Shown here: in pieces, positions 1,036-59,100 of the stretch
Layout of the letters: the number at the start of each line of letters is the position of its first letter
Numbering within the stretch: the stretch's first letter is position 1
NCBI GenBank assembly: GCA_051294375.1
Contig: CM119266.1
Location: 16,424,087-16,488,086 of the forward strand
Direction of reading: 5' to 3'
Length of the DNA stretch: 64,000 nt
DNA from: Paraspadella gotoi
Taxonomy: Eukaryota > Animalia > Chaetognatha
Translations under genes and position numbers: made by a program
The notes under the pieces: model-generated
What the model was told of the DNA's origin: nothing
What the model saw: only the letters and a program-made list of their open reading frames with translations
Databases searched by the model: none

Positions 1036-4000
1036 AATGAAAAGCATGAAAAGGAAATCGATGAAGAGAAATTCAACTTAAAGGAAGACGGATGGACGTT
1101 CATTCAAGAAATTTGTATAGAGTTTAATAAGGGCTCGTGCCCGTCGGGAGTTTCATGCAAAAAACGTCACGTGTGTTCAGATTGTCAAGGACCGTACCCC
1201 GTTAACAAATGCGCCCGATGCATAGGAAAAGTTAAGAACAAGTTCGTTTGCAACAATTACCAGACCGAACAATGTCATAAGTTCGACTGCCCATTTCCGC
1301 ACAGGTTCGAGAAAAACATGATTTGTATGTTTTATATTCGTAGCACATAAGTCTTATACATTGTTAGTTAGATTTAAGAAAGGCTGAATTACCCATTATG
1401 GGGTTTAGGCGACCCTGGCGGTCACTCCTGTCAGGTCAAATCGGTCCGAGAGTTGATGTCCGCTCACTTCGCTTCTCCTAGTATTAAGTTAATTAACCCT
1501 CGGATCGACTCCGACGTTGGTGTACGCAGGGGTCGCCTCACTGCTGTGTAATTGTGTAGTGATGAAAATGTATAGATACTATATAAAAATATTATTTTTT
1601 GAAAAATTTTCAAAATGGGAAATACTGTGCGAGAAGCAAAAAAAAAATTTCCAGATATTTGGACATATATTTGTCTTCATCAGTAGCAAAGAAATAACCG
1701 AGAAAAATTGTTTTGATAAATCACAATTCACAATTTGAGTGGTGAAGTAGTGTGTGAGAGAGGAGACCATTATGAGGTCAAATTTAACAGAGAGAAGAAC
1801 CCGGCTATGTAATTCACTTTGTTGGTCCGTCGGTCCGCCGCATAAATCTTGTCGGTAAGTCACTTAGATCATGTCAGAATATCAAATTATGATAAATTAT
1901 GCCAACTACCAACTACCGTGGGTGCTTACCACAACTACCATAACCCCCACAAAAACCAAAACTACCATAACCTGCATTATTACCTAAAATAAAACTACTA
2001 CTACTACATAAAAAAAATATAAATATTGTTAGCGAATTATTGTATTAATTAAAACAAGAAATTGATAGATAAATCCTAACTTATTATCTGATTCGCTGCT
2101 TGCCGCTAAATGCCCGCGTTCAGATCCGGCATTGTTTGCTAAAACTTGTTTCTTCCAATCCCAATATAATAAAAATATTTTTACAGTGCAAGAGCAGAGC
2201 ATGCGCTGTAATGGTTTCCTTAAGAATTTACCACGATGGAAAAAAATGTCGCGGTTTGGAAAAATAATTTTATTATAAAATGTTTTTTGCAAATAAAAAT
2301 TTTAATTTTTAGTATAATTTTTTTAAGATAAGTTTTTCCAATTTATATCTTTGTTAATTGTAATACATTGCTAAATGTAATTATTTTCTCTCTCTCTGTC
2401 TTCTCCAATTTTTTCATCTTTCACATTTCAACCAGTTGTTTCTTCTTACCTCGCCTAACCTTCACCTGTCCTCACATTTAACCACTGTCCTTTCTCAATT
2501 CTTTGTTGGTGAAGAGACAGTAATTATTGTAATGAGTTAGTGACGGAACCGTTCAATATAAGCAGTCCCTGAGCTTCGGATCAGGCTGTAACACCGTGTT
2601 ACAGGCGGGTTAAGCACCCTGTCCCTCTTAACTGCCAGACGACCACCGGGCTAGAACTCCGGACCTTTGGGTTGGGAGGCAAATGACTTGCTTCCGGCAC
2701 CAATGGCCGCTGATGAATGGTTGGTGGATTTTAATCCACCATATTGGAAACTTTTTCTCTTTTTCCCTCTCTCTTTCCAAAACTAATGTTAAAGAAAAAA
2801 AATAAGTTGATTATAAACGCTGATAAGACTTTTAAACCAGAGTCAAAACATGTATGACTAAACTATCAATACATTCGTTGTTGCACCATTAAAACTGTTT
2901 TTCCTAAAGATAAAAAATACATATTTATTCTTAACAGTATAAAATTATTAATGCATACAGATACTCTCAATATAGGTTCTTTAATTTTTTTTTAGATTAA
3001 GTAAACAATTTGTATTATTATTAATATTCTTTTTAATATGATATATTTTACTAGATTTAAAGAGATACAGCTGAGGTTGTCCTTTTTAATAATACCCATT
3101 TTATTAAAAAAATATTTAAAAGAAAATTAAATTATAAATTAAATTAAAAAATATTAAAACAATTTTTGAATAATTTTTGTATTTTTTATCGTACATAAAT
3201 GAAATACAGCTCATATGAATCATAAGAAGCTATAATTAAAATTTTAATTTTATTTTTTAATTTTTATATTAAAATGTTAAAAAATGGTTAACAAGTTGCC
3301 GCGACAATATTTTTTCCATCATGGTAGATGTTCTAGTTTGTTAGAAATACCGTCTTGGCGTTGTCGCGGTAACTTTAAAACTAAAAATTCAACCTCGGCG
3401 GGGGGTTATAGTTTAGGGAGAGGCTCTGAGAAAGACGGAAGGCCCAGGCTAAGGTTTGGGTTGACCGTTGAAGGAGAGGCTCAGCGAGAGATGGCAGGCC
3501 GGATTAGGATTACGGTTGAGGGAGAGGCTCGCTGGAGATATCACAAGCCGGTTATGGTGCGGGTAGGGGCCCGTGTTTAGGGTTAGATAGGAGGCTGTCG
3601 CGAGACATCTTATTTTTTCGAGTCAGTCCTTATTTTAAGCAAAATTGGAAATTTAAGTAAAACAGTATTTTAATCAATGATATATTATGATGATCTATTA
3701 TCTGATTTAAATATTTAAAGTATGATTTATTTTGTGTTGTTCGTTTTACATTCATTATATTTATGGAAAGTATAAAGCAGATGTAACTTTTTTGAAAAAT
3801 TAGGTGCTCCGGATGTATGGGACCTTCTCCACGGTGTAAATGCTCCTGTTTCTGTTCCCCGGTTGGATTTCATCCCCCACGGACTGAGGGGACACAACCC
3901 TTGCACCCGTTGCCTAGAGCTTCCAACGTGGTTGGCTCTCAATCTATTTTGGGTCCTTTTCCGGGAACACCGGGAATTCTGGGCCCCGCCCCAGGTTTTC

Positions 4001-5476
4001 TTCACTCTTCTGGCGGCCCCAGCCATATGGTTCCGCCCTCCTCTAGCAGCCGCACTCCGATTATGTCCGGTTCGCTTGGACCGGGGACATCCACGCAAGG
4101 CCAGAATACTTTTGAAGCTAACGGCGAAAAACCAGAGGTCTCAGAAGTTACTAATGGTGACAACGGTGCAGAATGTGAAGAGAAGCAAAACGACAACTTA
4201 GAAGAAGCCGAACCCGAAAATATGCAGCTAACAGATGCTTCGGTACTATTTTTCTTTTCGTCACAAAGAATTGTGACGAAGTTTTTAATTCGCTTCTATA
4301 TGTTGTGATTGTATTTTTTATCTCCCTAAAATTAATCATTGGGGACGTACCCCGTCTCCCCCTAATTTTTTCTTTTTACCTGCCTTTTAGGTTGATCCCG
4401 GAAACTCCTTGGGTTTTGTGAACGATGGCTCCTTTGCAGAAATCGCTGCGGCTACGATTGAGCAGCAAAAGGTACTGGTGTGAGGTTGCTTGAATCGAGT
4501 AAACCAACAGCTATTTGCTTTAGTTTGAGCCAAGAGTAAAAAGGATATCCCTCTGAGATTAATGTAGATAAAAATAAAAATTTCACACCTGGTCTCAAAA
4601 TTGCTAGTATTAGGCTATTTACTTTATTATTTTCTTTATTACTACAAGGTGACACACGACAACCCGACGCCAGAAAAAAATCGTCATTTGCATACTTATA
4701 TATTATATAAGTATGCAAATGACGATTTTTAATATATAAATTAAAAAAATCTTCACAGGTTTGCAAATAACGATTTTTTTAGCGGCGGGTTGTCGTGTGT
4801 CACCTTATAATATCTCCCGATCTTCATTAAATTAACATTTTTTTTTATCAGAGAGAAGTAACGAAGCAAGGCGCACAATCTTCGATAGGCTCAGGGGTAA
4901 GATTTTTATTTAGGTTATTAACTACTAGTTGATATTAATTTAAATACTAGTTTGATATAGAGGATTTGGTTTAAAATATTTTGTTTATAATTATGAGCAA
5001 TGTTAAGCAACGACGCAGAGTATTTCACCAACTGGCTTTAAATGCTTTTTTTCCCTTAATTGACCACCTCGAAACAATGGCGACTCCGTCATGCTTTGGC
5101 AAGGTAGCTGGGGAGATCTGCGAACTTACGTGATCGATTGGGACGGTGCATTATCCCACAGGAAAAAGCAATTTATTGAGATGTTCCTTGTGGAATCACC
5201 CCAAAAGCCCATTTTGCTACAAAATGCTCTCGAACAACCGTTTCCACTGAAATAATTGAGTTAAAGACCGATGATTGTTTAAAATTTAAGGTTAACAAAC
5301 GAGTTGGGGGTAAATCTCTCAAGACTGGCGTGGTGATGAAAACCAAAAAGCCTGAAGATAAGGTCAAAGACGGAGGCAACGATGATGCTTGGAGCAAGTA
5401 CATGGAAGAAGTAAAAAAAATGTCTGGAAACGTATGTGAACGAGGTCTTGGAGGAAATAATTCTGTTGCAAAATAA
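1036..5476 (+). CDS. TRIR: CCCH zinc-finger protein with a TRIR/C19orf43-like C-terminus (5' part not identified); exons 1036-1304, 3804-4242, 4391-4471, 4852-4896, 5291-5476
   Basis: GT-AG exons join in frame. Two C-x7-C-x4/5-C-x3-H + CxxC modules (EICIEFNKGSCPSGVSCKKRHVCSDC; FVCNNYQTEQCHKFDCPFPHRCSGC, the second spanning the first intron). Then FVNDGSF and KRVGGKSLKTGVV...DAWSKYMEEVKK, resembling TRIR motifs. Confidence 0.75.
2510..2743 (-). mobile_element. Solo LTR, family A
   Basis: TSD TTGG. The empty site of the host repeat is seen near 43135-43146 (ctttgttggaaact). Confidence 0.92.
4646..4806. mobile_element. Palindromic MITE (PIF/Harbinger-like)
   Basis: AAGGTGACACACGACAACCCG TIR plus internal inverted blocks. 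Confidence 0.7.
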
Positions 5477-7153: not shown

Positions 7154-7421
7154 TGTGGTGGAATATTCACACCTCCTCGCGTCCATACTCCATAATCGTT
7201 CAGCCAATCCCATTGGCTCAGATGAGGAACGCCCAATCCCAGGCGTTGTGTTCCATCCAGTCCTAACGACTTCCCACTGCGTTGGCAAAGCGAGACCGTC
7301 CTAGGGTAACTATGACAGTGAAAGGAGGCGTCACTGAGGGTCGGAACTTCGAAAGCCTCCAAAGCCAATAGTGAGATGCCCCATCCCAATGGGCATCACA
7401 GGCAACCCAGCTGTTGCCATA
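7154..7421 (+). mobile_element. Solo LTR, family B (decayed twister)
   Basis: TSD TTCC, homologous to 7681-7935. Confidence 0.88.
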
Positions 7422-7680
7422 TTCCTGGTTTTGATGGCACAATTAAAATCGTCTTCAAAAGTTCAAAGGAAAATTTAAATAATTGTTGTGATTTTTAAAA
7501 TTTAAATGTTATATTTACACTATTGTGGAAGACACTTAAAACATATTTAAATTTAAGGTTAAAATAACAGTCAGCTCCTTGCATTTTTCTGCTAGTGCGG
7601 AATACTTTATATAGTATTCCCCGTTCTACTAGTAATACTTAAGAGTCTTCCTTTTATGAACTGTATCATTAATGGGAAGG

Positions 7681-7935
7681 TGTGGCGGTATATTCACACT
7701 GCCACACGTCCAACATTGTTCAGCCAAATCCATTGGCTCAGAGGGGGAACACACCATCCCAGGCGTAGTGTTCCATCCACAGTCCTCACGACTTCCCTCT
7801 GCGTTGGCAAAGCGAGACCGTCCTAGGGTAACCGCGCCAGTGACTGGATGCGTCACTGAGGGTCGGAAGCCCCCAAAGCCAACAGTGAGATGCCCCATCC
7901 CAATGGGCATCACAGGCAACCCGGCTGTTGCCATA
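7681..7935 (+). mobile_element. Solo LTR, family B (tRNA-like head + twister-like fold)
   Basis: TGTGG...CCATA ends, TSD AAGG, 5' hairpin, A-box-like TGGCTCAGAGG. Confidence 0.88.
7803..7883 (+). ncRNA. Twister ribozyme, type P5 (family B); predicted cleavage between 7829 and 7830
   Basis: gttggc-aaa-GCGA-GA-CC-G-tcctaggg-TAA-CCGC-GC-[CAGTGAC/GTCACTG]-aGGG-TCGGAAGC-CCC-caaa-gccaac. Confidence 0.8.
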
Positions 7936-8477
7936 AAGGTCAGTTACTCTCTGGGAGTCTTAATTGAAAACTTACACGGTCCGGCTATGTTATTATCTTG
8001 TAAGATGGATGGAAGCTTCAACCCACCATGTCCAAAGTCAGAGGCATGCTAGCTTATTTATTGAATGAGTGGATAATTTCATATTGGTTGTACCGATCCC
8101 AATAAACCCAAAAAATTGTATTAATTTTGTTAAAGAATTCATTATTGAAACAGATGTTTTTCAGTCGCTTTAGTTTTGCTTGTAAAAATTTTTTAAGACA
8201 ATGTAAAACTAGAGTATATTTTGAATAACTAAAGGATCTATTCATTATTCGAGTTTTTATACTGATAGTTACTAAAAAAAATTCGTATGTGAGTCGAAAC
8301 ATGTCCGTTTCACTATGAAATAAAAATCGTTGTTAAATCTCTCTTCAAATCTTTGTTCTATATTAATTTCATACAAAAGTAGATTTGTGTATTTTTACCT
8401 AGTTTTCATTATTTTTGTTTTATGTACGTATATTTCACCGATCGAGTTATAAATTCTAAATTGTGGTCCCTACTCCG

Positions 8478-9642: not shown

Positions 9643-9764
9643 CTACTCGGTAGTGAAAAATTAAATTTGTTGATATCATCCTTTATTGTTGTTGTTTTTT
9701 TTATCAGAATGCAAACCAGTAGAATATTTTGTTTTTTTCTGTAGTTAAATATTTGTAAATCAAG

Positions 9765-10769
9765 ATGCAGCGTTTGGCGTATTCATTTATCGTTCAAGCC
9801 GCTTCTTCAGAAAACAACTCATCCGACGTTGGATTGAGCGAAAATTGCTCGATATTGCAATCCGCTTCTCAAGAAACTGAAGATTCGAATAATTTCAAGG
9901 CTCTAAAAATGCGTTGGGCAGTTGAGAAAACTAACATGTTGGAGACCTGTGAATTTTTATTAGAAAAGATTCGACGTATTTGTCGTATTAACTTAAGTAA
10001 CGATGAAGAACCAATATCTTCAACGTCGGATGTTCCACCATCTACCCTAGACCTTGAAACCACCAATTCAAAGCCCTGTCTGCAGACTCTTAGTCCCGAG
10101 CTTCACGATCTCATTCTCGCAGAGGCCTTTCGACGTCTTGAAGAACGGACTCCTCAACAACGATACAAGGATGTATTTCGACGTAATGATCTTACAGGCG
10201 AACTCAGCCCCGAAGCCCGCATCTACATCAGCTTCGTTAAACAAGCATTTATATCGACTTTTATTTTGGGCGGCTTCTTGGAGCGCAATCCAGCCCGGGA
10301 AAAATTTCTCAAACGTAATCTGGCAACTAAATTTGCATCCCCAATGTCAGCTAATCGGAGACGCCTCGACTACCTCATGATTCAAATTTTTTTCGGTGGG
10401 GTTAAATTCGCTTTTCCAATAACTACATTTTTGGCGATTTATTTAGGTTTGGCTGGTATTTTGGGTGTTGTTGAGGGTGAGGAACGTATTTGGCACCATA
10501 GTGCTGGGGCGGCACTGGCGGGATTTAACAACCGACTTATACTGGGGCCCCGTGCTCAGCTAGTTGGAGCAATTTTGGGTGGAGCGTTTGGTTTGGTTGG
10601 GGGTACTGCTGCGCTTATCTTCAGAGATTACCTAGGCGTAATTTCTTTGAAGAAATACCGTTACTACCGATATCTTCAGGACGTTATGATTGAGATGTAC
10701 AAAACTCAGCGATTGCCAATGCCGCCTACCGAATACGAAATTTTTTATTCGATGCCTCCCATATATTAA
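9765..10769 (+). CDS. TIMMDC1: Tim17/22/23-family membrane protein, TIMMDC1 (complex I assembly factor)-like, single exon
   Basis: 334-aa ORF with Gly-rich TM segments (AGAALAG...LGPRAQLVGAILGGAFG) and RYKDVFRRNDLTGELSPE and FLKRNLATKFASPMSANRR segments like the TIMMDC1/140up family. Confidence 0.7.
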   Translation: MQRLAYSFIVQAASSENNSSDVGLSENCSILQSASQETEDSNNFKALKMRWAVEKTNMLETCEFLLEKIRRICRINLSNDEEPISSTSDVPPSTLDLETTNSKPCLQTLSPELHDLILAEAFRRLEERTPQQRYKDVFRRNDLTGELSPEARIYISFVKQAFISTFILGGFLERNPAREKFLKRNLATKFASPMSANRRRLDYLMIQIFFGGVKFAFPITTFLAIYLGLAGILGVVEGEERIWHHSAGAALAGFNNRLILGPRAQLVGAILGGAFGLVGGTAALIFRDYLGVISLKKYRYYRYLQDVMIEMYKTQRLPMPPTEYEIFYSMPPIY

Positions 10770-11177: not shown

Positions 11178-11410
11178 TGTGGTTCTCTTTAACGAATTAC
11201 CGCCTCACCTCCGACTTCACTCAGGCAATCCCTAAGACTCAGCAGGGAAACGCACGGTCAAATTGCATACCGAGTCCTCACGTCTTCCAGCTGCGTTGGG
11301 AATGCGAGACTGTATAACCACCCGGAGTCACTCGGGGGTCCGACGCCCCCAGCGCCAACAGGTGTGATGAGCAACTCCGCTTGGCATAACAGGCAACCTG
11401 GTACTTAACA
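11178..11410 (+). mobile_element. Old divergent family B-related solo LTR
   Basis: TG...CA ends, TAAA/TAAC flanks, shared blocks gtcctcacg, ctgcgttgg..gcgagac and acaggcaacc. Confidence 0.6.
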
Positions 11411-12061
11411 TAACCTTGATTAACCTTGTCGAATCGGAAGCGAATCTCGCCCGAATTCTATTGTAAATTCTACTTTACTATAATAATAATCGGACACGCT
11501 TCAGTTATATATTTTTGAATATCTTAAGACTTAATCTCCTTAATCTTTCTTCTAGGTGTTCACTTTTCAATTAACAATGCAAGATGTTCATACCTGAGTG
11601 GCAAGTGTATTCAAAGCTGGATCAAGGGATTAAATTAAAGCTCAAGACAGAGGGCTTGAAAATTAAAAGCAGAACGGGATAAATGTTGTGATTGCCATTG
11701 AGGGCGAATATAACCGACTTTATCATTCCTGATATCCGTTTTACTTACGCTTATGAGAGATTTTGTACTTGCATTCGATTTTCATTCATCTTACTTTATA
11801 AATAAAACATTCTATTAGGACTTTCTTTTTTTTTATTTTTAAAATTCGATCTCAGTCATTAGAATTTAGATTGATTCTAGAAAACGTGAAATAACTTGGT
11901 TGAAAATACCCGAACCAAAATCCCTGCCCTAAATTTTAGGGCAGGGATTTTGGTTCGGGTATTTTCAACAATGAAATTGGAACGTTACTAACTATTATTT
12001 CTTTTTTTCCCACCGATAAATATGAAACACCCTTTATTTAAAAAAAAACGGTTGGCTATAG

Positions 12062-17346: not shown

Positions 17347-20300
17347 ATGAATATGGAAAAATATGACAGCATCAATTCCACTTTTATCCCGTACGGATCA
17401 TCGGAAACTCCTTCTCCTATAAGTCCTGCATTTGGCCTGAAGACGAGGACACCTTTCACTATTGTTTATACTATAATATACTCAGGTATTAGAATTTAGA
17501 GGACAAAAACGAGGCGATTAAATAGATATCGAAAAACGAAAACTTGATTTCATAATCTTATAGTGGTAATATAAAGTTGTCCATTTGATGTTTGACGAAT
17601 GTGTACAATTTTATGTAATGCGAGGTGATTAGTCTTAAGCAAATAAAATAAAAATACTCTTGGCGTTTTTGAACAAATTTAGAAATATTAAGCGGTTTTA
17701 GTTCAAATGCCATATTATCATAAGACATAACAACGCAGGAATTGGATGATTGAAAACTAAATAATTTATTTGATCGAGTTATGGCAAGAGTCAATTTGGC
17801 ATTCTCAGACAAATTTAAAAAAGTAAAAAAGCGAGTTTTACAAAAATGCTTTTTTCAAAACAGAAATACGGTGTAAATGCAAATAAAAAAAAAGTTTTTA
17901 TCCCATTATTTTAACTGCACGTTTCGGTTTCGAAGCCATCGTCAGTGGCTATATGAAAATGTGAAACAAAATAATTGAGAGGAAAGAAAGAGAGTGTAAT
18001 AGCGAAATCAAAGACCAAAGAAGGGTTGTGCCCCCCCTTTGCAGCCGTCTTAATCTATACAGAGTGTCTCAAGGGTACTGTCTCTTTACAAACGAATACA
18101 GTGGATCATTATATTTATGGTGGACTAAAATCCGAAGCTAAGGGACTGCTTAATAGTGCTTATAACAATTATTTGTCTCTTCATTGGTGAGCTCGACTTC
18201 AGAATACAACAGCAACAACAACACTTTCAGGCGACATACCTCAACTTGGCAACGCGCTTTCTGGCAACAACACATCATGAGGCGATGTGCCTCAACTTGG
18301 TGATGAGCTTTCCATCAACGATTCACTGAAGAGACGCAACAGACTTCTCCCTAGGGAAGGGGGATGTATGGTGGACTAAAATCCACCAACCGTTAATCAG
18401 CGGCCATTGGTGCAGGAGGCAAGTCATTCGCCTCCCAACCCAAAGGTCCGGGGTTCTAGCTTGGTGGCTGCCTAGGAGTTAAGATGGATGGGGCGCTGAA
18501 CCCGCCTGTAACACGGTGTTACAGCCTGATCCGAAGCTCTTAACAATTATCTCTGTCTCTTCACAGTTATATAAAATGCATTTACTGTGCTTTTTGGATT
18601 CAAAAGTTCTTACAGTTTTAAATGTCTTTATTTTTAAAATCAAACGATAAAGCAAATGTTTAAATTTTTTTTCTAATTCTATCAATTTTAAAATATTTCA
18701 ATCTTTTCAACTACCCAAAAGTTATTTTTTTAGCGACGAGATACGAGACGCCAATGGAACCATTGTTTCCATCTTCTTGAAAGCTGATTGGTTGATTCCA
18801 ACAAATCACGTGACGACGATTCTATCAAGCGAGAGAAAGAGAGAGTTTTTGCCTCTTGAATCTTTTTGCTTTCACGATCTTGTTAGTCCTGCGATGGTTG
18901 AATAATAATATGTCGTCACTGTATAATGATTGTAACAGGTTTTTCCTTACAGATTTTTACCATAGCCATTCCGGAATTGTAAGTATTTGATAGGTTTTCT
19001 TTGAAATCATCCTACGGATATGCATCTGGTTTGACCGCCAATTACATTAGCATGCCTCTGAGCTGCAGTCAGCTGGAAAATGGTTTTAGCAGTAAAAAGT
19101 ACTCTATGCATCTAACATCATATTCTGAATTATAGCATACTAAATTTGCAGGGTTTATCAGTTTCCTGAAGGTAAACTTAATGAGCGTCCATTAAAATTT
19201 ATTTTTTTTACATTATCACCCTATCTACAGAAATCTTAGGCAAGGGCACAATAAACATAGTCGCCTACTGTAATGTAAAATGCATAATTTTTTTACGCCA
19301 AAAGAAGGACAACTTTATAAATTTAATATCACCTAAATTTTTTGATTGATTGTCAAGACAAAAATCACCCCTCGTTTGAACTGCGCATTGTGTTATTATT
19401 CTATCCAATTAATAATTCACCATACCAAATTAACACAGAGTTCATTTGTAAAGTGACAGTACTCTTGAGACACTCTGTATAAGTGTAATAAGTGTATATT
19501 TCATGAAAGACTGGCTTCTACACTTCAGTTTGACAAATGTGCCCCAATCTTCGATTACACCTCCCTCCTCTTTTGAGTCTTAGGTATTTGACCTCAGTCT
19601 GACCAAATTCTTTCTCTTATGTTTCTTTCTATCTCAATTATTTTGTTTCACATTTTCATTTAGCCCAATGGCTTATTAGAAACCGACGACTAAGTCTAAA
19701 ATACACATTTGTATTACAATTGTGCTGGTGTATGCGATGACTTTTAAAGAAAGAGCAGTTTTGTTGTTATTAATTGAATTATTATTGGTATTGATTATAT
19801 TCATTGAGGCAAGCAACGCAGAGAATAGATTATGAAGAGAGTTGTAAGAGGAAGCTATAAGTTTTATTTATAATTATTATTTTGTTAAACATAAAATGAC
19901 TATCTTACACGACGTCCGAAGTTTATTTTAAAAAAATTATTTATTACAGGCATTTTTGCATACGTATATTTCCAGCTACTACTAATTCTTTACCATGGTC
20001 ACAAACGTCTCAGTTACCAAACGGTTTTTCTATATATTTGTCTAATTTGGGCGGCGCTGCGTACTACGCTCTTTAGCTTTTTTTACAATGATACAGTTAC
20101 TGCTAATCAGCTAAGTATTTTTTTTCATTGGCTACTTTTCTGTGCTCCATCTATTTTGCAATACTCAATAATGAATCTTCTCTTTGTATTTTTTGCACAA
20201 TTAATAATTCCAAATCGGATTAATCCCGACCTTTTGCTTAGAAGAAAAAAAAGAATTTTCATCGTTTCGGCTACAGGATTTTTATTATTTGTTGTAACAA

Positions 20301-21016
20301 ACATATCATGTGCTATATTAACAAAAATAATATATACCACCGATACCTGTAAATATATTAAAGCAATTGACATCGTCATTGCAAGAGTGATTATTAATGA
20401 TGGACTCTTCATGCTAAGCGCAATTTCCCTAGCGATTTGCATCGTACAATTGAGAAAACGGCCATCTGCAAAGGCGATGTTTGAATCTAAAGGAATGGGA
20501 TTTAAAGGAGCGATAATCATGGCAGTTTTTATTATTATAATTTTCGTATCAAGAGTGATCTATAATTTTATGGCGGTGTTTAATATTTGTCCATCATTTG
20601 GCTATGGTTGGATAAACGTATCGGATCAAGCCGAACTAAAAAATCTTACTGATGATATGGCGTATTTATCTTTTGGATTAGTCTTATTGTTTTGGGAATG
20701 TCTCCCTACGCTCATTATAGTAATGTTTTTTCGCGTAAAGACAAGATCATACTCTTCTGTAGACACTCAAGAATTTCACGAGAGAACTATTGGCAGCCTT
20801 CCGGGATTGGCAGGACCTTCATATTTTTTCGACAACAGAAACCGATACAATAGTACGGACGATATTACTCATGCTTCAATTCCACAATCTCCTCGCTCTT
20901 CGGCGGTCGATATTTATACAATTGGACAGTTAAATTCTGGTCATTCTTATTCGACCTACACTGGTAGTAAGTCAATCCCAAAATCTCCCGTTGGATTAGC
21001 TACACATCGGAGATAG
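17347..21016 (+). CDS. GPR137: GPR137/TM7SF1 lysosomal 7TM protein; exons 17347-17485 and 19950-21016
   Basis: Phase-1 GT-AG join gives HKRLSYQTVFLYICLIWAALRTTLFSF, FGYGWINVSDQA, WECLPT and YFFDNRNRY, matching GPR137B motifs. Confidence 0.92.
18060..19477. mobile_element. Tc1/mariner-like non-autonomous element in the GPR137 intron; partial copy at ~32985-33747
   Basis: TA-flanked ~37-bp TIR CAGAGTGTCTCAAG.GTACTGTC.CTTTACAAA. Confidence 0.75.
18116..18563 (+). mobile_element. TRIM family A with internally deleted LTRs
   Basis: TATGGTGG...TCTCTTCA ends, with PBS, internal region and PPT. The 5' LTR is collapsed at an ATCC microhomology. No clean TSD. Confidence 0.85.
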
Positions 21017-23815
21017 TTACGTATATTATACTCTTTCCAATATGTATCCATATGCTTTTCCAAACGACCGATTCCATTCGTTAGTTAAAAATTCAATTGG
21101 TCGGAAACTGTTTAGTGTGTTAAGTACGTAAAAGAGGTAAAATTTTACATTCGCCGACTGGGATTTGTGTTGTAACAATATAATAAAAAAAATATTATTA
21201 AAAAAAAAAGACTTGTAATGTAAAGTCGAAACATGTACGAAAAATAAAAACCATCGACATCGTAGTTGAAACAAATAATTTTTTTTCTCATCTAAAAAAG
21301 AAGTAAAACTTATCGAAACCCCATTCATAATTATAATCACACCTAACCCTAAACAACCCTGACCTTAAACCCAACTAACCCTAATCGGCGAATGTGAAGT
21401 TAATTATTTATGTCGTAAAAAATGTTAATGCTTTAACTATTTGACTTAACTATCCAAATTTGTTTGGTTTAAAAAGTATTGCCCGCTAAATAACGTTTCC
21501 ATTCTGTAATTTTTATCCGCGGGCTTTTTCCGATAATTTTTTGTTAATAATTTTGTCACTTAATATTTTTCTCGCACGTTACAGTTTAGGGGTAATCGGA
21601 AATGGTGGTTAAAGATCAGCCAGTAAGGTCTTTCAGGATTTGTAATTTTGTTCCTTTTTCCAACAAAATTAATGCAATCACGTTGACTACACGATCTATC
21701 CCGTAAGGCGAAACAGGTTGAAAACTAAAAGATGTCAGCTATGGTGAAACATCTTTTAAAGCTCATAAAAATAATAAAAGTTTTGGAAAAAATTGTACAT
21801 TCGGAGACTGGGATTATTTGTTTTTCGCTTTAAGCATTGTATAAAAATCTTGTGTAAAAAGAAGTAGAAAAAAGAACAATGGTAAGAATAGAAAAACTTA
21901 AACTTTAATGTTTTTAAAATTTAAAAAAAAAAAGGTTTTCATAATTTATTCGCCTATAGAACCCCTGACCAACCAATATAAAAAATATTGATAAAAATAT
22001 TTGGAAAATTTGAAAGATTTTTCGCCATTTAAGATTTTTGCTGAATCTGACTTCCAGTTGAAAACTCTGAGAATACCGATCGCTAGCTTCTCTTTTACTT
22101 TTAGTAGAGATGAGCATCGTTCGAATCGAAGCTCCGATCNNNNNNNNNNNNNNNNNNNNNNNNNAGAGAGAGAAGCAAAATAGTTGCACCTATTCGTTTT
22201 AAAACAAATTAATATATAAAAACTGAAAATGATACTTTTTGACTTGTAAACTTAAAAATTAATTCATAGGCAAACTATAATGATTTAAGGAAATAAATTT
22301 ACCCAGAGATGAAGAAGATAAGGAAGAACGGATTTCCAAAATTTCCTTGGCATTCTAATCAAAAGACGAAAGTGAAAATGGACAAAAATGGACATAGATT
22401 TTTTCTTCTAAATGTTGCAAAAATTGTACTTTTTTATCATTTGAAACTGGTGGATATGATTTCAACCAATCCCTAATTCAGCCAATTGTTATTGTGGTAG
22501 AAATCAAATTGTTATTGTAAGTAATGTAACAACTGAACAATATTAGAAACAGTTGCTTTTTTGCTAAATGCGAAGTTTGTAGGCGGAACCTTTTACTATA
22601 GAATGAAAGGGAAATTTTTTTTTTTAAATTACCAACGGGATTACGGTATGTGAGCATTATAAATAGTACTTCGAATTATGAGATTCCAAAAGCCTCGTGT
22701 CCCAAGAGCTCGACCTATTTTTCTCTTTTTATTTCATGATGTTTTTAGGGACAAACAATCAGGTTTAAATGAAGTGGTCCAGTTTTCATTGCGAAATTTT
22801 TATTTAAAAATAAATTAAAAGGAAGGTTGAAAAAAAAACAACTGATTTTTTCTAATATCTTTTAAAAGAATAAAGATACAGGGATGGCAATAGTACCAAA
22901 ATGAAGCCATAATCATAGGGCATATACCAGATACAAATTTAAAATTATTTTTCCTAAAACTCCTTACAGGGGGAGTGCAAAACTAAGTCAAAAGTATAGC
23001 AATTTTTAAAACTAATGAACACCCCAGAACAATAAATGAAAATAGCAAATGAGCCAGGACAAATAGACAGCTTCTTTACGAAAAAATTTTCATCTCTGAT
23101 TTTATATAGAAATGAAAGGGATTTTTTCCCTTCAAAGCAATATAAACGTGAATATTATTAAGGTATGTTCCAGTTTCACAAATGATATCAAATTCAGGAA
23201 TGCTTTGACCAAATTTTTCTTTAAATTTTAAATAGTTTTTCAATATGATATGATCAGGGTAAAGTGAATTAGTCCACTTTCATAAATTTTATTTAAACTA
23301 AAAGTGGGGATGAGCATCGTTTCTAAACAACTCATTGTTTTATATCAAATTAGGTAGCGTTCGATAGACATTGCAAACATCTACATGCATAATTCATCAT
23401 AATCCGACAATCCGTTCAAAAGTAATCGCCAAAAAGCAATCGCAAAAAATCGCTCTTCAAACCGATCAACTTTCCTTTAAAATCGAGCTCGTTTTGATCC
23501 AACAAAGATTAGTATATGCGTAGTACTAAGCTTTAGAACCGGCGCACAGTGAGATCCTGGCCTGAATTATTCAGAAAATCCCGTTCAATTAAAAATATTT
23601 TTTATTATATATGAATTATGAAAATATTTTTAAAAAAATTTATTTAAATATTAAAATAATTAAAAATATAATTTTATAATTTTAAATAAATAAAATAAAA
23701 TTATTTTATAATAAAATATATATTATATCAGATTAATATAATAATAAAAAATAATAATAATAATAATAATAAAATAATAATTATAATTAAAAAAATAAAA
23801 TTAAAAAAAAATTAT

Positions 23816-27970: not shown

Positions 27971-30900
27971 TAAATAATTTTTTTTTTAATTTTATTTTTT
28001 TAATTATAATTATATTTTATTATTATTATTATTATTATTTTATTATTATTATATATATCTGATAATAATATATATTTTATTATAAAATAATTTTATTTTA
28101 TTTATTTAAAATTATAAAAATTATATTTTAATTATTTTAATATCAAATAAATTTTTTTTAAAAATATTTTCATAATTCATATATAATAAAAAATATTTTT
28201 AATTGAACGGGATTTTTCTGAATAATTCAGGCCCAGGATCTCACTGTGCGCCGGTTCTAAAGCTTAGTACTACGCATAGTACTAATCTTTGTTGGATCAA
28301 AACGAGCTCGATTTTAAAGGAAAGTTGATCGGTTTGAAGAGCGATTTTTGCGATTGCTTTTTGGCGATTACTTTTGAACGGATTGTCGGATTATGATGAA
28401 ATTATGCATGTAGATGTTTGCAATTGTCTATCGAACGCTACCTAATTTGATATAAAACAATGAGTTGTTTAGAAACGATGCTCATCCCCACTTTTAGTTT
28501 AAATAAAAATTTTATGAAAGTGGACTAATTCACTTTACCCTGATCATATCATATTGAAAAACTATTTAAAATTTAAAGAAAAATTTGGTCAAAGCATTCC
28601 TGAATTTGATATCATTTGTGAAACTGGAACATACCTTAATAATATTCACGTTTATATTGCTTTGAAGGGAAAAAATCCCTTTCATTTCTATATAAAATCA
28701 GAGATGAAAATTTTTTCGTAAAGAAGCTGTCTATTTGTCCTGGCTCATTTGCTATTTTCATTTATTGTTCTGGGGTGTCATTAGTTTTAAAAATTGCTAT
28801 ACTTTTGACTTAGTTTTGCACTCCCCCTGTAAGGAGGTTTTAGGAAAAATAATTTTAAATTTGTATCTGGTATATGCCCTATGATTATGGCTTCATTTTG
28901 GTACTATTGCCATCCCTGTATCTTTATTCTTTTAAAAGATATTAGAAAAAATCAGTTGTTTTTTTATCAACCTTCCTTTTAATTTATTTTTAAATAAAAA
29001 TTTCGCAATGAAAACTGGACCACTTCATTTAAACCTGATTGTTTGTCCCTAAAAACATCATGAAATAAAAAGAGAAAAATAGGTCGAGCTCTTGGGACAC
29101 GAGGCTTTTGGAATCTCATAATTCGAAGTACTATTTATAATGCTCACATACCGTAATCCCGTTGGTAATTTAAAAAAAAAAAATTTCCCTTTCATTTCTA
29201 TAGTAAAAGGTTCCGCCTACAAACTTCGCATTTAGCAAAAAAGCAACTGTTTCTAATATTGTTCAGTTGTTACTTACAATAACAATTTGATTTCTACCAC
29301 AATACAAATTGGGCTGAATTAGGGATTGGTTGAAATCATATCCACCAGTTTCAAATGATAAAAAAGTACAATTTTTGCAACATTTAGAAGAAAAAATCAT
29401 GTCCATTTTTGTCCATTTTCACTTTCGTCTTTTGATTAGAATGCCAAGGAAATTTTGGAAATCCGTTCTTCCTTATCTTCTTCATCTCTGGGTAAATTTA
29501 TTTCCTTAAATCATTTATAGTTTGCCTATGAATTAATTTTAAAGTTTACAAGTCAAAAAGTATCATTTTCAGTTTTTATTATAATTTGTTAAACGAAAAT
29601 AGTGCAAATTTGTTTAAATTAACAGAAATATAGGCTATTGAATAAGCTTTTAACTCCTATAAAATTAACAAAAAACTTTTTTTGGTTTAGCCACAAATAA
29701 TTTTTAAAGATATCTTTTAATTTGTGACTTTTTGTGACTTGCATTTACTTTTGATAAAGAGAATATTTTCAACTCATTTATTAGTTTTAAAAGATGAGGT
29801 ACATACTGACGTTGATTAATAAAAAAAAAACCGCATCCTTTTAACCCAAAGGAAAGCGTCAGGACTTGTTTTCTCTCAGAAAAATTTCCCCCAAAATCTG
29901 TTGATTTACTAAATTTGCGAGGCAACCAAAATTGAAAGAAAAATCATGCGCTACCGTTCATTTTCTTTCTTATATTAATATTTTAATATATTAATTTTAA
30001 TATATTAATATAATGAATCTAAGGATTTTCATCGATTTGGTTCAATATTAATGAAGAAAAGTGATAGGAAAGATGAAAGGGAGAACAAAAAGAGCAGAAG
30101 GGGAGCAGATGAGAGAGAATGAGGTAAAAAAAGGAAAAAGAGAAGGCAAAGGGGATAAAAGTAGAGAGATAAAGGTAAGGCGGGAAGGGGGAGAAATTGA
30201 AAGAAAAAGAAGAGGAAAAAAATGGAAGGAGAGAATAACATATTCAATAAGAGAAAAAAAATATAAAGAAAGTGGAAGAGAATTAGGGAAAGGTAGGGAG
30301 TAAAAAAATGGAAAATGAAGACGTGAGATGAAAGGGAGGAAAGAGGGTTAGAAAAAATAAAAAGCTGTGAAGAAGAAAGGTAACGAGAAAGAATAACAGA
30401 AAGGATATGAGAAGGAAAAAATGGTAACAGATATTGTGGTGTCTTGTCAAAATAGTTTGCTCTAAGTAAAAGACACAAAAATTATTTAGGAGTCTACGTC
30501 GTTCTTAGAAATTGAGGAAGACTTTTTCAATGGAGATTTTCGTTAAAATCTGACTACCAAATAATGTCAACGCCCCTGGGAAAAATTCAGGTAAAAAATA
30601 GATGTAACAACAGTCGATTCCGATCCTGTTATGTCTGAAGGGCTCGCATTTTTTTTCTCTTGACAAATAACCATCATTTTGACATCGAACCATTCGATTA
30701 AAATGTACTGGTCCTCTCAGGAAAATATTTTTGACGCAATTTTTATATATAAAATAAAGGGATTTCTCAACTTCAATACAATGTCAACGCATTTAAGGTA
30801 TGTTGTCATTTTACAATAAACTTCGAATTCAGGAATCCGATAGCAATATGTCTGAAGGGCTCTCAAAATTTTTCTTTACATTTCATTTGGTTATTTTAAT

Positions 30901-31420: not shown

Positions 31421-32073
31421 TGAAGAGACAGTGATTATTGTTATATGTTAGTGACAGAACCGTATCAATATAAGCAGTCCCTGAGCTTCGGATCAGGCTG
31501 TAACACCATGTTACAGGCGGGTTAAGCGCCCTGTCCCTCTTAACTGCCAGACGACCACCGGGCTAGAACCCCGGACCTTTGGGTTGGGAGGCGAATGACT
31601 TGCCTCCGGCACCAATGGCCGCTGATGAACGGTTGGTGGATTTTAGTCCACCATACATCCCCCCCTCCCGTAGGGAGAAGTCTGTGCATCTCTTCAGTGA
31701 ATTGTTGTTGGTGGAAAGTTCGTCACCAAGTTGAGGCATGTCGCCTGATGTGTTGTGGGCGGAAAGTGCATCGTCAGGTTGAGGCATGTTGCCTGAAAGT
31801 GTTGTTGTTGCTGTTGTGTTCGGAAGTCGGGCTCACCAATGAAGAGACAGTGATTATTGTTATATATTAGTGACAGAACCGTTCAATATAAGCAGTCCCT
31901 GAGCTTCGGATCAGGCTGTAACACCATGTTACAGGCGGGTTAAGCGCCCTGTCCCTCTTAACTGTCAGACGACCATCGGGCTAAAACCCCGGACCTTTGG
32001 GTTGGGAGGCGAATGACTTGCCTCCGGCACCAATGGCCGCTGATGAACGGTTGGTGGATTTTAGTCCTCCATA
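31421..32073 (-). mobile_element. Full-length TRIM, family A (Helenus-like): two ~235-bp LTRs, each with a tRNA-like head and a twister-like fold
   Basis: LTRs 31421-31655 and 31840-32073. TSD TAGT on both sides. PBS TGGTGAGCCCGAC (31838-31826, tRNA-Trp-like). PPT GGGAGGGGGGGA next to the 3' LTR. No credible coding capacity. Confidence 0.93.
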
Positions 32074-33949: not shown

Positions 33950-51733
<17,784 letters not shown>

Positions 51734-55197: not shown

Positions 55198-55451
55198 TGT
55201 GGTGGTATATTCACACCACCTCACGTCCACGATCGTTCAGCCAATACCATTGGCTCAGAGGGGGAACACACCATCCCAGGCGTTGTATTCCATCCACAGT
55301 CCTAACGACTTCCCTCTGCGTTAGCAAAGCGAGGCCGTCCTAGGTAACCACGCCATTGACTGGATATATCACTGAGGGTCGGAAGCCCCCAAAGCCAACA
55401 GTGAGATGCCCCATCCCAATGGGCATCACAGGCAACCCGGCTGTTGTCATA
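55198..55451 (+). mobile_element. Solo LTR, family B
   Basis: TSD ATAG. The empty site aggatagtactatatataaatatag is seen near 43314-43338. Confidence 0.9.
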
Positions 55452-56131: not shown

Positions 56132-59100
56132 TCAAATTTTGAGATCAACAAAAGTAGCCGCTGTAGCTACTCCGCAATTGTTGTCTTTTTGACTCATGAG
56201 AACATAACCGTCATTGCCCCAAAAGGTTGACCAAGAGTTTTTAATGAGCCAATATTTTTGATCATTGAACACGCCGTATCCTACGGCCAACACAGCATGA
56301 TCAAGATCATATTCAGTATTTCCACAGTTTGGCTCGTAATAAACCTAAAAAAAAAGTATGTCAAAGCAGCTTACTAATAATTAATGAATATTATAGCATA
56401 TACAAGACTTGAAATTCATCTCAAAACGTAGTGGTGACAGTCGACGAAAGTTACTGCTTCTGTTAATATAATCACTTATGGTGGACTAAAATCCACCAAC
56501 CGTTCATCAGCGGCCATTGGTGCCGGAGGCAAGTCATTCGCCTCCCAACCCAAAGGTCCAGGGTTCTAGTCTGGCAGTTAAGAGGGACGGGGCGCTTAAC
56601 CTGCCTGTAACATGGTGTTACAGCCTGATCCGAAGCTCAGGACTGCTTATATTGAACGGTTCTGTCATTAACCTGTCTTTGTTTGTTTGTTGATGATGAT
56701 TGTACTGAATCAACCTCGTTGTATTCGAATAAAATCGCATATTAACACATATCAATAATTACTGTCTCTTCATTGGTGAGCCCGACTTCCGAACACAACA
56801 GCAACAACAACACTTTCAGGCGACATGCCTCAACCTGGCGATGCACTTTCCGCCCACAACACATCAGGCGACATGCCTCAACTTGGTGACGAACTTTCCA
56901 CCAACAACAATTCACTGAAGAGACGCAACAGACTTCTCCCTACGGAGGGGGGGATGTATGGTGGACTAAAATCCAACAACCGTTCAACAGCGGCCATTGG
57001 TGCCGGAGGCAAGTCATTCGCCTCCCAACCCAAAGGTCCGGGGTTCTAGCCCGGTGGTCGTCTGGCAGTTAAGAGGGACGAGGCGCTTAACCCGCTGTAA
57101 CATGGTGTTACAGCCTGATCCGAAGCTCAGGGACTGCTTATATTGAACGGTTCGGTCATTAACACATCAATAATTACTGTCTCTTCACACTAAACAATCA
57201 AGATTCGAATATCGAAACTCTTAGGGGATTGATCAAATCGCACCATTGGATTTGGTAAATCGCTAATGTTAATGGCAAGAGGAACGTGCGTCATGCCCGG
57301 GGTGTAAGGCGTCTCCCTACAGGTGGCGCTCAAGGCTTTGGGCCTGCAATGACCACCCAGCTTAAGTTAACCAGACTATATGGGAAGCGAATTTAGGAAT
57401 CGCCACAATATACCGGGTGCTGTTTGGCAACTGGTTTTTGCGTCATAAAATCTTGATCTTATTGTTGATAGAGTGATCGTTGTATTGTTTGAGAAATTGT
57501 CTACATTAAGGATTTAAATTAAATTCTGATACATTTCAAAAAGTACTTGTATAATGTGTGGGATTTTCATATTAAAAGAACTTTACCCCTTGATTATAAA
57601 AGGCGAAGCTGGGATGGGATGCATCAATTCCCACAGATATGGGACCCTCTTCAAAAATAGCGATTTGTAACGCATTCAAATCTCCTGAAGGGATGTTTTT
57701 CCAATTCTTGATGGTATATAGTTGGGTAAAGTTTTCAATCTTGCAAAAACCGTTGATTCCTTTGTACATTCCATAATCCCGCTCGAGAGGGATGCCATGT
57801 TGCTTGATATATTTGTAAGCTCTATTTCAACATAAAAAGGAAATTTAGAACCAAATTCCGAAACTCGATCCCAAACCTTTTTTCATAATATTTTTATATT
57901 TTTGGATAGAGAATGACTGGAATAATGTAAATCTTAAGTTACGTCTAAATTGGCCCATGGGTTTAGAAAATCGACCAAAAACAACCAAAATTCCTCTCCC
58001 TTTTTTCAACATTCTCGCCTTTTAAGATTTTCGCCGATTCTGACTGCCTCTTAGTTAGGGATTAGCAGTATTCGACGAAATTTTTATTTCTCTATCGGCC
58101 GAAAAATAATAGGGAATTTGATACCAAAAAACAAGGCTTTTTTAAATATTTACTGTATGAAAAATACTGAAAAGAAAAATTTTATTTTTTGAATATAGGT
58201 AGCGTAAGTGTAACTAACTAAAAACCGAAAAAGAATCTTTCAAATTAGAAAAATATTGGAATAGTACAGAAAGCAATATTTCTTTTTATTGTAGCGCAAA
58301 AACTAGGCTTTCCTCGCAAAACCTCTGGTTATAGGAGATGCAAATGTATTTTTTCTCAATGTATTTATCATTGATAATTCCCAAAAATGATGCGCAAAAA
58401 CTCTCCGTCTCCTAAACCTGCCAATACGGAACTTTGGCATCGTCATAAAGCTTTGGTGAATTTACCCTAGTTCGTTTTGTAACTCTTCTAACGAATCCTA
58501 TATCGTATACCGCATCTCTCCTCCCTTGTCTCCATTCCCTCAATCTGAATTAATAGTGTTCCATTTAAACACCCTACCTCTTCGTACAAAATTTGACCAC
58601 AAAGTTCTGAACCAACCACTGCACACAATCCAGAAGCCCAAGGGCCCAAAAATGTGTTTACCGGAATCGTCCGCCATAGGAAGCGCGGTTATTTTTTTTT
58701 TTTATAACCGAAATAGATTTTTTTTTTTTTTTTGAAAACGCGAAGTCTTCTCGCAACAGGGATTTGAATAACTACATAATATCTGTATTTATAATTCTGT
58801 AATATATATGCAGTTGGTAATATTTACGTTAATTGGGAAGTTTGAAAATGAACCCCCACAAAAAATAAATAGAGAAAGCCACGAAGGAAAGAATTAATCG
58901 TATTTAAAAAGTGGGGTGCCAGAATTGTAAGGCCATTGGAGTGAGTTAGTTTTAATATAATTTATTCATTACAGTATTGCGTGGCTTGCTTTCGGCACGT
59001 AGCCGATGACCCGAAAAGCTTATAATAAGAGGAACTCGGTTCACAAATATAGACCCGGCCCTGATACAGTGAAAAAACTGTTTGGGCCAACCCGGCAAGG

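Follow-up and report, generated by a model that had tools for sequence, protein, structure and literature searches.

Can a twister ribozyme profit from, or even depend on, a second copy of itself? The question is raised by a short element at 7681-7935 of a 64,000-nucleotide stretch of Paraspadella gotoi DNA (the window), which contains a twister-like fold with a P1 helix that is a palindrome without a loop. The preliminary description of this DNA had found such palindromes in several families of window copies (A to D) and had suggested that two ribozymes in one transcript exchange strands to form a real P1, so that full elements would cleave well and solo LTRs in host introns would stay nearly silent. 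Covariation of the inner P1 pairs, the contrast with phage twisters and nearest-neighbour energies speak for an exchange of strands between two copies. The division into cleaving full elements and nearly silent intronic solo LTRs was not supported, as type-P1 twisters cut without P1 and the placement in introns found no support.

The fold at 7803-7883 and its class

On the forward strand, the segment 7803-7883 of a 255-bp solo LTR is modelled here as a twister fold in circularly permuted (type-P5) form. Its strands follow in the order P5, P2, GA with T1, P1 slot, UAA, P2, T2, P3, P4 with L4, and P5. The helix register is that in which Rfam's Twister-P5 model aligns to two sister copies, one of family D (34386-34428) and one of family C (44684-44747), and in this register the predicted cut falls between U7829 and A7830. 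The parts of the fold are:

7803-7808/7878-7883 (+), P5, from the descriptor parse
7812-7815/7832-7835 (+), P2, with three of four pairs
7816-7817 (+), conserved GA
7818-7820/7864-7866 (+), T1
7821-7828 (+), P1 slot, the loop-less palindrome TCCTAGGG
7836-7837/7869-7870 (+), T2
7838-7858 (+), P3
7860-7862/7871-7873 (+), P4, with L4 at 7863-7870

The permuted order and the ends in P5 place the window copies among type-P5 twisters. As an ordinary hairpin, their P1 would have at most one to two pairs and a positive free energy.

With the Rfam Twister-P5 model (RF02684), the D copy at 34386-34428 scored 25.6 bits and the C copy at 44684-44747 scored 22 bits, the gathering score being 37.6, and the twister-P1 model gave a sub-threshold 16.1 bits for B. 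No copy in the window reached an Rfam gathering score, and the family A LTR had no Rfam twister match. Single-strand folding gave z-scores of -2.3 to +1.2 and did not recover the full twister fold. Many copies have core damage, and T1 is mismatched in four of the seven family A copies. The low Rfam scores, the weak z-scores and the core damage would be expected if the folds were inactive or not twisters at all, and if the palindromes were due to chance or to processes at the DNA level. We consider this highly improbable in view of the conservation of the core. The catalytic G (general base) and the L4 core are invariant in seven aligned copies from four families, and the best copy of each family has an intact conserved G, UAA cut site and L4 core. 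T1, T2 and P2 covary between the families, with pairing kept in the T1 forms CGG/CCG, CCG/CGG and UGG/CCA and in the T2 forms GC/GC and AC/GU. The best copies of the four families have descriptor scores of 22.8, 22.0, 20.2 and 17.8, all of them above the maximum of 17.0 found in five block-shuffled windows. The window copies are taken here as twister folds that are predicted to be self-cleaving.

The elements that carry the fold

The fold at 7803-7883 lies in a family B element, and the B and C copies of the window are all solo elements, listed here with a B-related copy:

7681-7935 (+), family B solo LTR-like element with TG...TA ends and the 4-bp duplication AAGG
7734-7778 (+), degenerate tRNA-like head of this element and putative Pol III promoter, A-box-like at 7734 and B-box-like at 7770 (pattern with at most one mismatch)
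7154-7421 (+), second family B solo copy, P1 slot 7299-7306, P2 and L4 damaged
55198-55451 (+), third family B solo copy, with a mutated GA and one base missing from the P1 slot
11215-11430 (+), B-related copy with approximate bounds, P1 slot of 2 nt, damage in T1, T2 and L4
44622-44879 (-), solo element of family C, a homologue of B, with its P1 slot at 44731-44738

B and C align end to end (z 23.6). No two-LTR element was found among the six B, B-related and C copies of the window. The element at 7681-7935 is inserted into a family D unit. In contigs of sequencing runs it occurs with many different flanks at 7681 and 7935/7936, and its contig depth, which is no measure of copy number, is orders of magnitude above that of neighbouring bins. 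An antisense orientation of the B and C ribozyme was considered and dropped, the 5' ends of B and C aligning with that of A.

Family A includes elements with two LTRs:

31421-32073 (-), two-LTR TRIM with LTRs 31840-32073 and 31421-31655, primer site (PBS) 31826-31839 and duplication ACTA
56477-57187 (+), two-LTR TRIM with PBS 56773-56786, 3' LTR 56957-57187 and duplication CACT
18116-18563 (+), two-LTR copy that has lost most of its 5' LTR and has unmatched flanks
2510-2743 (-), solo LTR with P1 slot GGTGCT and duplication CCAA
61901-62114 (+), solo LTR with a deletion before GA and duplication GTAT

The element at 31421-32073 has a purine tract that ends just before 31655 and one twister per LTR, 418 nt apart, with a T1 mismatch in both. 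The element at 56477-57187 has the best-scoring twister, at 56586 (P1 slot 56591-56596). Three family A elements have the layout of Helenus TRIMs, namely two LTRs, a primer site, a purine tract, a length below 1.3 kb and no coding capacity. The 4-bp duplications that are a trait of animal Helenus elements flank eight of the nine elements examined for flanks, with the 18116 copy as the exception. A- and B-box-like motifs with at most one mismatch are located just upstream of the twister in five of six elements of families A to C, a run of four T is absent from five of the six checked, and neither ARAGORN nor Rfam scans gave a tRNA match in them. Families A to C resemble Helenus TRIMs, the primer site and the purine tract being seen in A. 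Compared by eye, the family A primer site is one base off that of two wasp Helenus families, and we take it to be that of tRNA-Trp. Family A has at most weak similarity to C (z 2.3) and shares the L4 region with D (z 6.3). A 48-nt direct repeat is present in two copies in the internal region of A (31703-31805(-) and 56805-56909(+)). Three of the seven family A ribozymes, 2623(-), 31953(-) and 31535(-), have in common that the middle pair of T1 is an A-C mismatch, and two of these are in the LTRs of one element; this weakened T1 form appears to have transposed.

Family D is a tandem, non-LTR-like repeat without primer site or purine tract:

34321-34831 (-), tandem of two 170-nt repeats with a 340-nt period and a P3-less twister in each
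7564-8100 (+), unit with a spacer from 7564 and a ribozyme repeat at 7955-8100, split by the B insertion
38071-38503 (-), copy with a broken P1 palindrome and an insertion

In the first of these, with P1 slots at 34755-34760 and 34415-34420, the 3' end is shared and the 5' ends vary, and such a partial tandem layout fits a Penelope-like non-autonomous element. The ribozyme of the 7564-8100 unit (P1 slot AAGCTT, 8013-8018) has C^A at the cut site and is probably decayed. The D spacer contains a conserved stretch with a short hairpin (7564-7680(+), 34492-34660(-)).

Elsewhere in the window, a long uninterrupted host frame at 9759-10769(+) encodes a Tim17-family protein (weak Pfam match), which we take to be TIMMDC1-like, and the host frame at 19895-21016(+), likewise long and uninterrupted, is GPR137-like, with its best named relatives in brachiopod, chiton and amphioxus at 41-42%. 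None of the nine long frames scanned in the window gave a retroelement Pfam match. A long inverted repeat pair with AT-rich tracts at 23419-23560 and 28230-28374 probably derives from a DNA transposon, and inverted structures like it are located at 4656-4796 and 11825-12025. At 46325-46800, an 18-bp unit is repeated in tandem about 27 times, and this array, which contains an inversion, gives spurious microRNA matches.

Palindromic P1 slots and probable pairing between copies

The palindromes are located between the strand of GA and T1 and the (U/C)AA cleavage strand. All five motifs that had been named, for A, B, C, D and a D variant, are present where the preliminary description had placed them:

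7821-7828 and 7299-7306 (+), family B, TCCTAGGG
seven family A copies, GGCGCT in six and GGTGCT in one
44731-44738 (-), family C, TGTTGGCA
34415-34420 and 34755-34760 (-), family D, AGGCCT
8013-8018 (+), D variant, AAGCTT

The claim that every twister here has such a P1 is true of 13 of the 16 window copies with a readable slot, when an even length and full Watson-Crick or G-U pairing are taken as the measure. In the other three the palindrome is lost: one base is missing in copy 55333, a G-to-C change and a 6-nt duplication are found in copy 38474(-), and the slot of the B-related copy near 11308 is down to 2 nt. The D variant AAGCTT exists, but is weak as support, being a minority form in a damaged copy with 5 nt missing before P4; G accounts for 85% of the depth at 8014 (8733/10249, run X1), and 8017 is absent from the 40 rows listed out of 86. 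For the B slot at 7821-7828, no variant was found among the 40 variant rows listed out of 86 for contigs of sequencing runs.

In a type-P5 twister P1 is a hairpin by definition, a point absent from the preliminary description. Since this hairpin already needs the outer pairs and its loop needs at least three bases, only the inner four bases of the slot are informative. Complementarity of these four is found in A, B and D, and the C copy of the window has only G-U pairs there. That family C as a whole would be more palindromic than its window copy was set as a prediction and compared with the per-position depth of contigs: in four of four runs, 89-96% of the depth at 44735 has the base needed for a C-G pair at the centre. 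The window copy of C is thus the deviant one, probably through CpG decay. Between B and the majority form of C, P1 is ungapped and six of eight positions differ, with all four antiparallel pairs kept; the innermost pair has undergone a double change from U-A to C-G, and A and D have C-G and G-C at this place. By a rough estimate, inner-four complementarity in every one of the four families has a chance of 3e-5 to 8e-5, which is an underestimate, the calculation being post hoc, using the majority form of C and treating families that are related. G-U pairs are found at the P1 ends in A and B and inside P1 in C, which would point to pairing of RNA and away from repair of a DNA palindrome.

Pattern scans of viral contigs, with at least 180 loci, served as control; slots from 4 nt were allowed, so that short ones were not excluded. 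Of the at least 180 loci listed, 50 passed a filter on T1, P2 and P4. The 34 distinct phage type-P5 P1 slots among the loci listed are all hairpins of 15-28 nt with at least six pairs. None of these 34 is loop-less, and a self-complementary inner tetramer was found in none of the 27 even-length phage slots among the loci listed. The gain of a duplex over hairpins has a median of 2.8 kcal/mol in the phage loci listed, compared with 8-10 kcal/mol in A, B and D. Because of the covariation of the inner pairs, the majority form of C and the contrast with phages, pairing between two copies looks selected.

When metagenomes were scanned for type-P5 twisters with a short P1, 93 loci with 72 parses were obtained, of which four went through the filter; no animal relatives were found among the 93 loci. 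L226, a loop-less match, is a chance match inside a bacterial coding frame, and for L223 and L184 the parse had assumed the wrong order, both being ordinary type-P1 twisters. L263, at about 295-345 of a 509-nt contig, is type-P5-like with intact P2, P4 and T1 and has a non-palindromic P1 slot of 5 nt. As L263 looks real, a short tether seems possible. The palindromes could have arisen by deletion of the tip of an ancestral hairpin, which would join its arms, with monomers that cut alone and a dimer of no relevance. Besides L263, the dispensability of P1, the three of 16 window copies without a palindrome and the B slot, which can form the tabulated special tetraloop C(CUAG)G and by which a B monomer can close a hairpin, would agree with this origin. 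It needs, however, several independent and exactly symmetric deletions, without which the innermost double changes between homologous families are left unexplained, and the P1 of phage type-P5 twisters is long in 34 of 34 slots among the loci listed. We regard such an origin as improbable.

By nearest-neighbour calculation, a duplex of P1 alone has -8.3 (A), -10.0 (B) and -9.1 (D) kcal/mol, and the hairpins have +2.7 to +5.7 kcal/mol. For the whole ribozyme, the swapped dimer minus two monomers amounts to -11.7, -13.4, -9.0 and -13.1 kcal/mol for A, B, C and D, in trans, at standard state and with pseudoknots ignored. In the natural two-LTR transcript of A the swap gains only 3.2 kcal/mol. Pairing of the palindromes would force a full swap, by which the half with GA and T1 from each copy comes together with the UAA half of its partner. 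In a two-LTR (A) or tandem (D) transcript this swap would be fully nested: the 5' half of copy 1, i.e. P5, P2, GA and the T1 strand, would pair with the 3' half of copy 2, and the 5' half of copy 2 with the 3' half of copy 1. That two copies swap strands in this way, share one P1 helix between two hybrid cores and cut faster than singles is the reading that we favour by a modest degree. Cutting at both sites would release a unit-length RNA without terminal repeat (418 nt for the A element at 31421-32073), which, by analogy with plant LTR retrozymes, would have to become a circle before it could be copied; a host ligase would close it, and a helper element would supply the reverse transcription. 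The circle would contain one ribozyme with a P1 of one or two pairs, and slow re-cutting would make it last. Following the retrozyme model (PMC4918200), we propose that keeping the unit-length circle uncut is the rationale for slow monomers.

How strict would such a dependence be? Single copies are probably slower, not silent. According to a review, accessible in part, P1-less twisters cleave at an almost wild-type rate (PMC5408937), and in 1,948 natural type-P1 twisters the length, stability and defects of P1 had no effect on cleavage in the data available from PMC11662667, while the accessible sections of PMC8501958 call P1-less cleavage inefficient. The portions of these three reports that bear on dispensability do not treat a tight P5-type tether. 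Strict gating, a stronger claim than faster cleavage as a pair, appears unlikely to us. Solo LTRs could pair in trans, because they have A- and B-box-like promoter motifs of their own and are present at many loci. In the predicted A circle, half of the ribozyme is already sequestered by other pairings, and since such a circle would block its own ribozyme, its protection needs no dimer gate. Moreover, fast cleavage may not be needed for an element to move, because three of the seven A copies, including both LTRs of one element, share the T1 mismatch. We treat only as a doubtful extension the idea of a natural obligately dimeric twister in which a tight P1 tether silences singles and only the strand-swapped double cuts, serving as a portable copy-counting switch common to LTR (Helenus-like) and Penelope-like retroelements, with family A as an animal LTR retrozyme that makes stable circles.

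Single copies might also cut well, with the palindrome kept for some other pairing of RNA with RNA, e.g. dimerisation of element RNA for packaging or template switching. Dimerisation of retrovirus genomes starts at six-base palindromes, and cleavage would leave the released RNA with the palindrome at its extreme 3' end. Such a function would explain the covariation of the inner pairs together with the dispensability of P1. Yet in each of the four families, D without primer site and purine tract among them, the palindrome coincides exactly with the P1 register, to which a packaging signal would not have to be bound. We judge this function rather improbable, and cleavage that is faster as a pair is the reading retained below.

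Comparison with known systems

The window copies share with type-P5 twisters of RF02684 the strand order, the ends in P5, GA, UAA, L4 and both pseudoknots. They differ in their P1, a loop-less palindrome of 6-8 nt instead of a long hairpin, in their sub-gathering scores and in their host, an animal retroelement. The T-variant twisters of Perere-3 (Liu 2021, PMC8501958) are likewise twisters with a reduced P1 inside a retrotransposon, but, as far as the available text describes them, they have the type-P1 form, sit at the 5' end of an RTE LINE and have a P1 completed by flanking DNA; the words "palindrom" and "dimer" do not occur in that text. Twisters in truncated form are also mentioned for the 5' ends of RTE elements in the accessible part of PMC7761336. 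The literature covered, to which subscription journals mostly do not belong, yielded neither a twister that is dimeric or has a palindromic P1 nor one that resides in a TRIM or LTR.

Like the P1 described here, the cut-site helix of the dimeric, minimal type I hammerheads known from Penelope-like elements and from amphibian retrozymes is a palindrome beside the cut site that is unable to close in one copy and can be shared by two tandem copies (PMC6765202 and PMC7229834, each in part). In the available data of PMC7229834, axolotl hammerheads with a helix III of one or two pairs cut at 6% and 22% per hour alone and much better as dimeric constructs. These hammerheads are of another ribozyme class. 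Because their helix III is essential for catalysis, whereas the P1 of twisters is reported as dispensable, the analogy does not carry the claim of gating. In hammerheads, whose shared helix belongs to the core, dimer-assisted cleavage is known, and a covarying palindromic P1 in a twister, in which P1 is held to be dispensable, would mean either that the P5 topology needs P1 or that the RNA pairs for another reason.

With plant LTR retrozymes (Cervera 2016, PMC4918200, in the portion accessible) family A shares a noncoding LTR element with primer site, purine tract and 4-bp duplications and a self-cleaving motif per LTR, here predicted from the fold, and in both systems double cleavage would remove the terminal repeat. 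The plant elements have a type III hammerhead; the elements of the window have a twister fold and belong to an animal. The same portion of PMC4918200 reports neither a primer site nor a purine tract in animal hammerhead repeats.

Helenus TRIMs are short noncoding LTR elements with tRNA-like A and B boxes in the LTR (Kojima 2024, PMC10886601, in part), and families A to C have in common with them 4-bp duplications and many solo LTRs, as well as a primer site and a purine tract in A. Here a twister follows the tRNA-like head, whereas the available sections of PMC10886601 describe no ribozyme in Helenus elements; six twister L4 terms gave no match in the accessible part of the Helenus consensus file, in a single-strand search that was broken by line ends. 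By eye, Helenus-2_SyJa-LTR and Helenus-2_SyUm-LTR in the supplement, as far as it was available, seem to contain, downstream of their tRNA-like boxes, a hammerhead of type III. This hammerhead is absent from the accessible main text, and the primer site of the two is nearly that of family A. If the reading is true, Helenus-2 would be a second animal LTR retrozyme.

For Penelope-like elements, the available text of the Naiad paper (PMC8557442) states that canonical hammerheads are lacking and does not contain the word "twister". In the accessible part of its supplement, which covers Naiad and Chlamys, one of 18 motif places parses by eye as a twister and 17 do not. This Penelope-like consensus, the last record before File S7, has a type-P5 twister-like fold near its 3' end (by eye), with a 39-nt P1 slot that is tipped by a 10-nt loop-less palindrome and a T2 pair that is that of family D.

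Taken together, the comparison points to a variant type-P5 twister in a retroelement setting for which no description was found in the literature covered, with good comparative evidence for pairing between copies. A twister that depends on two copies would, if true, be a useful part for RNA circuits and for the production of circular RNA. The elements join three things that were described separately, namely Pol III-type TRIMs, LTR retrozymes, which are known from plants and with hammerheads, and twisters.
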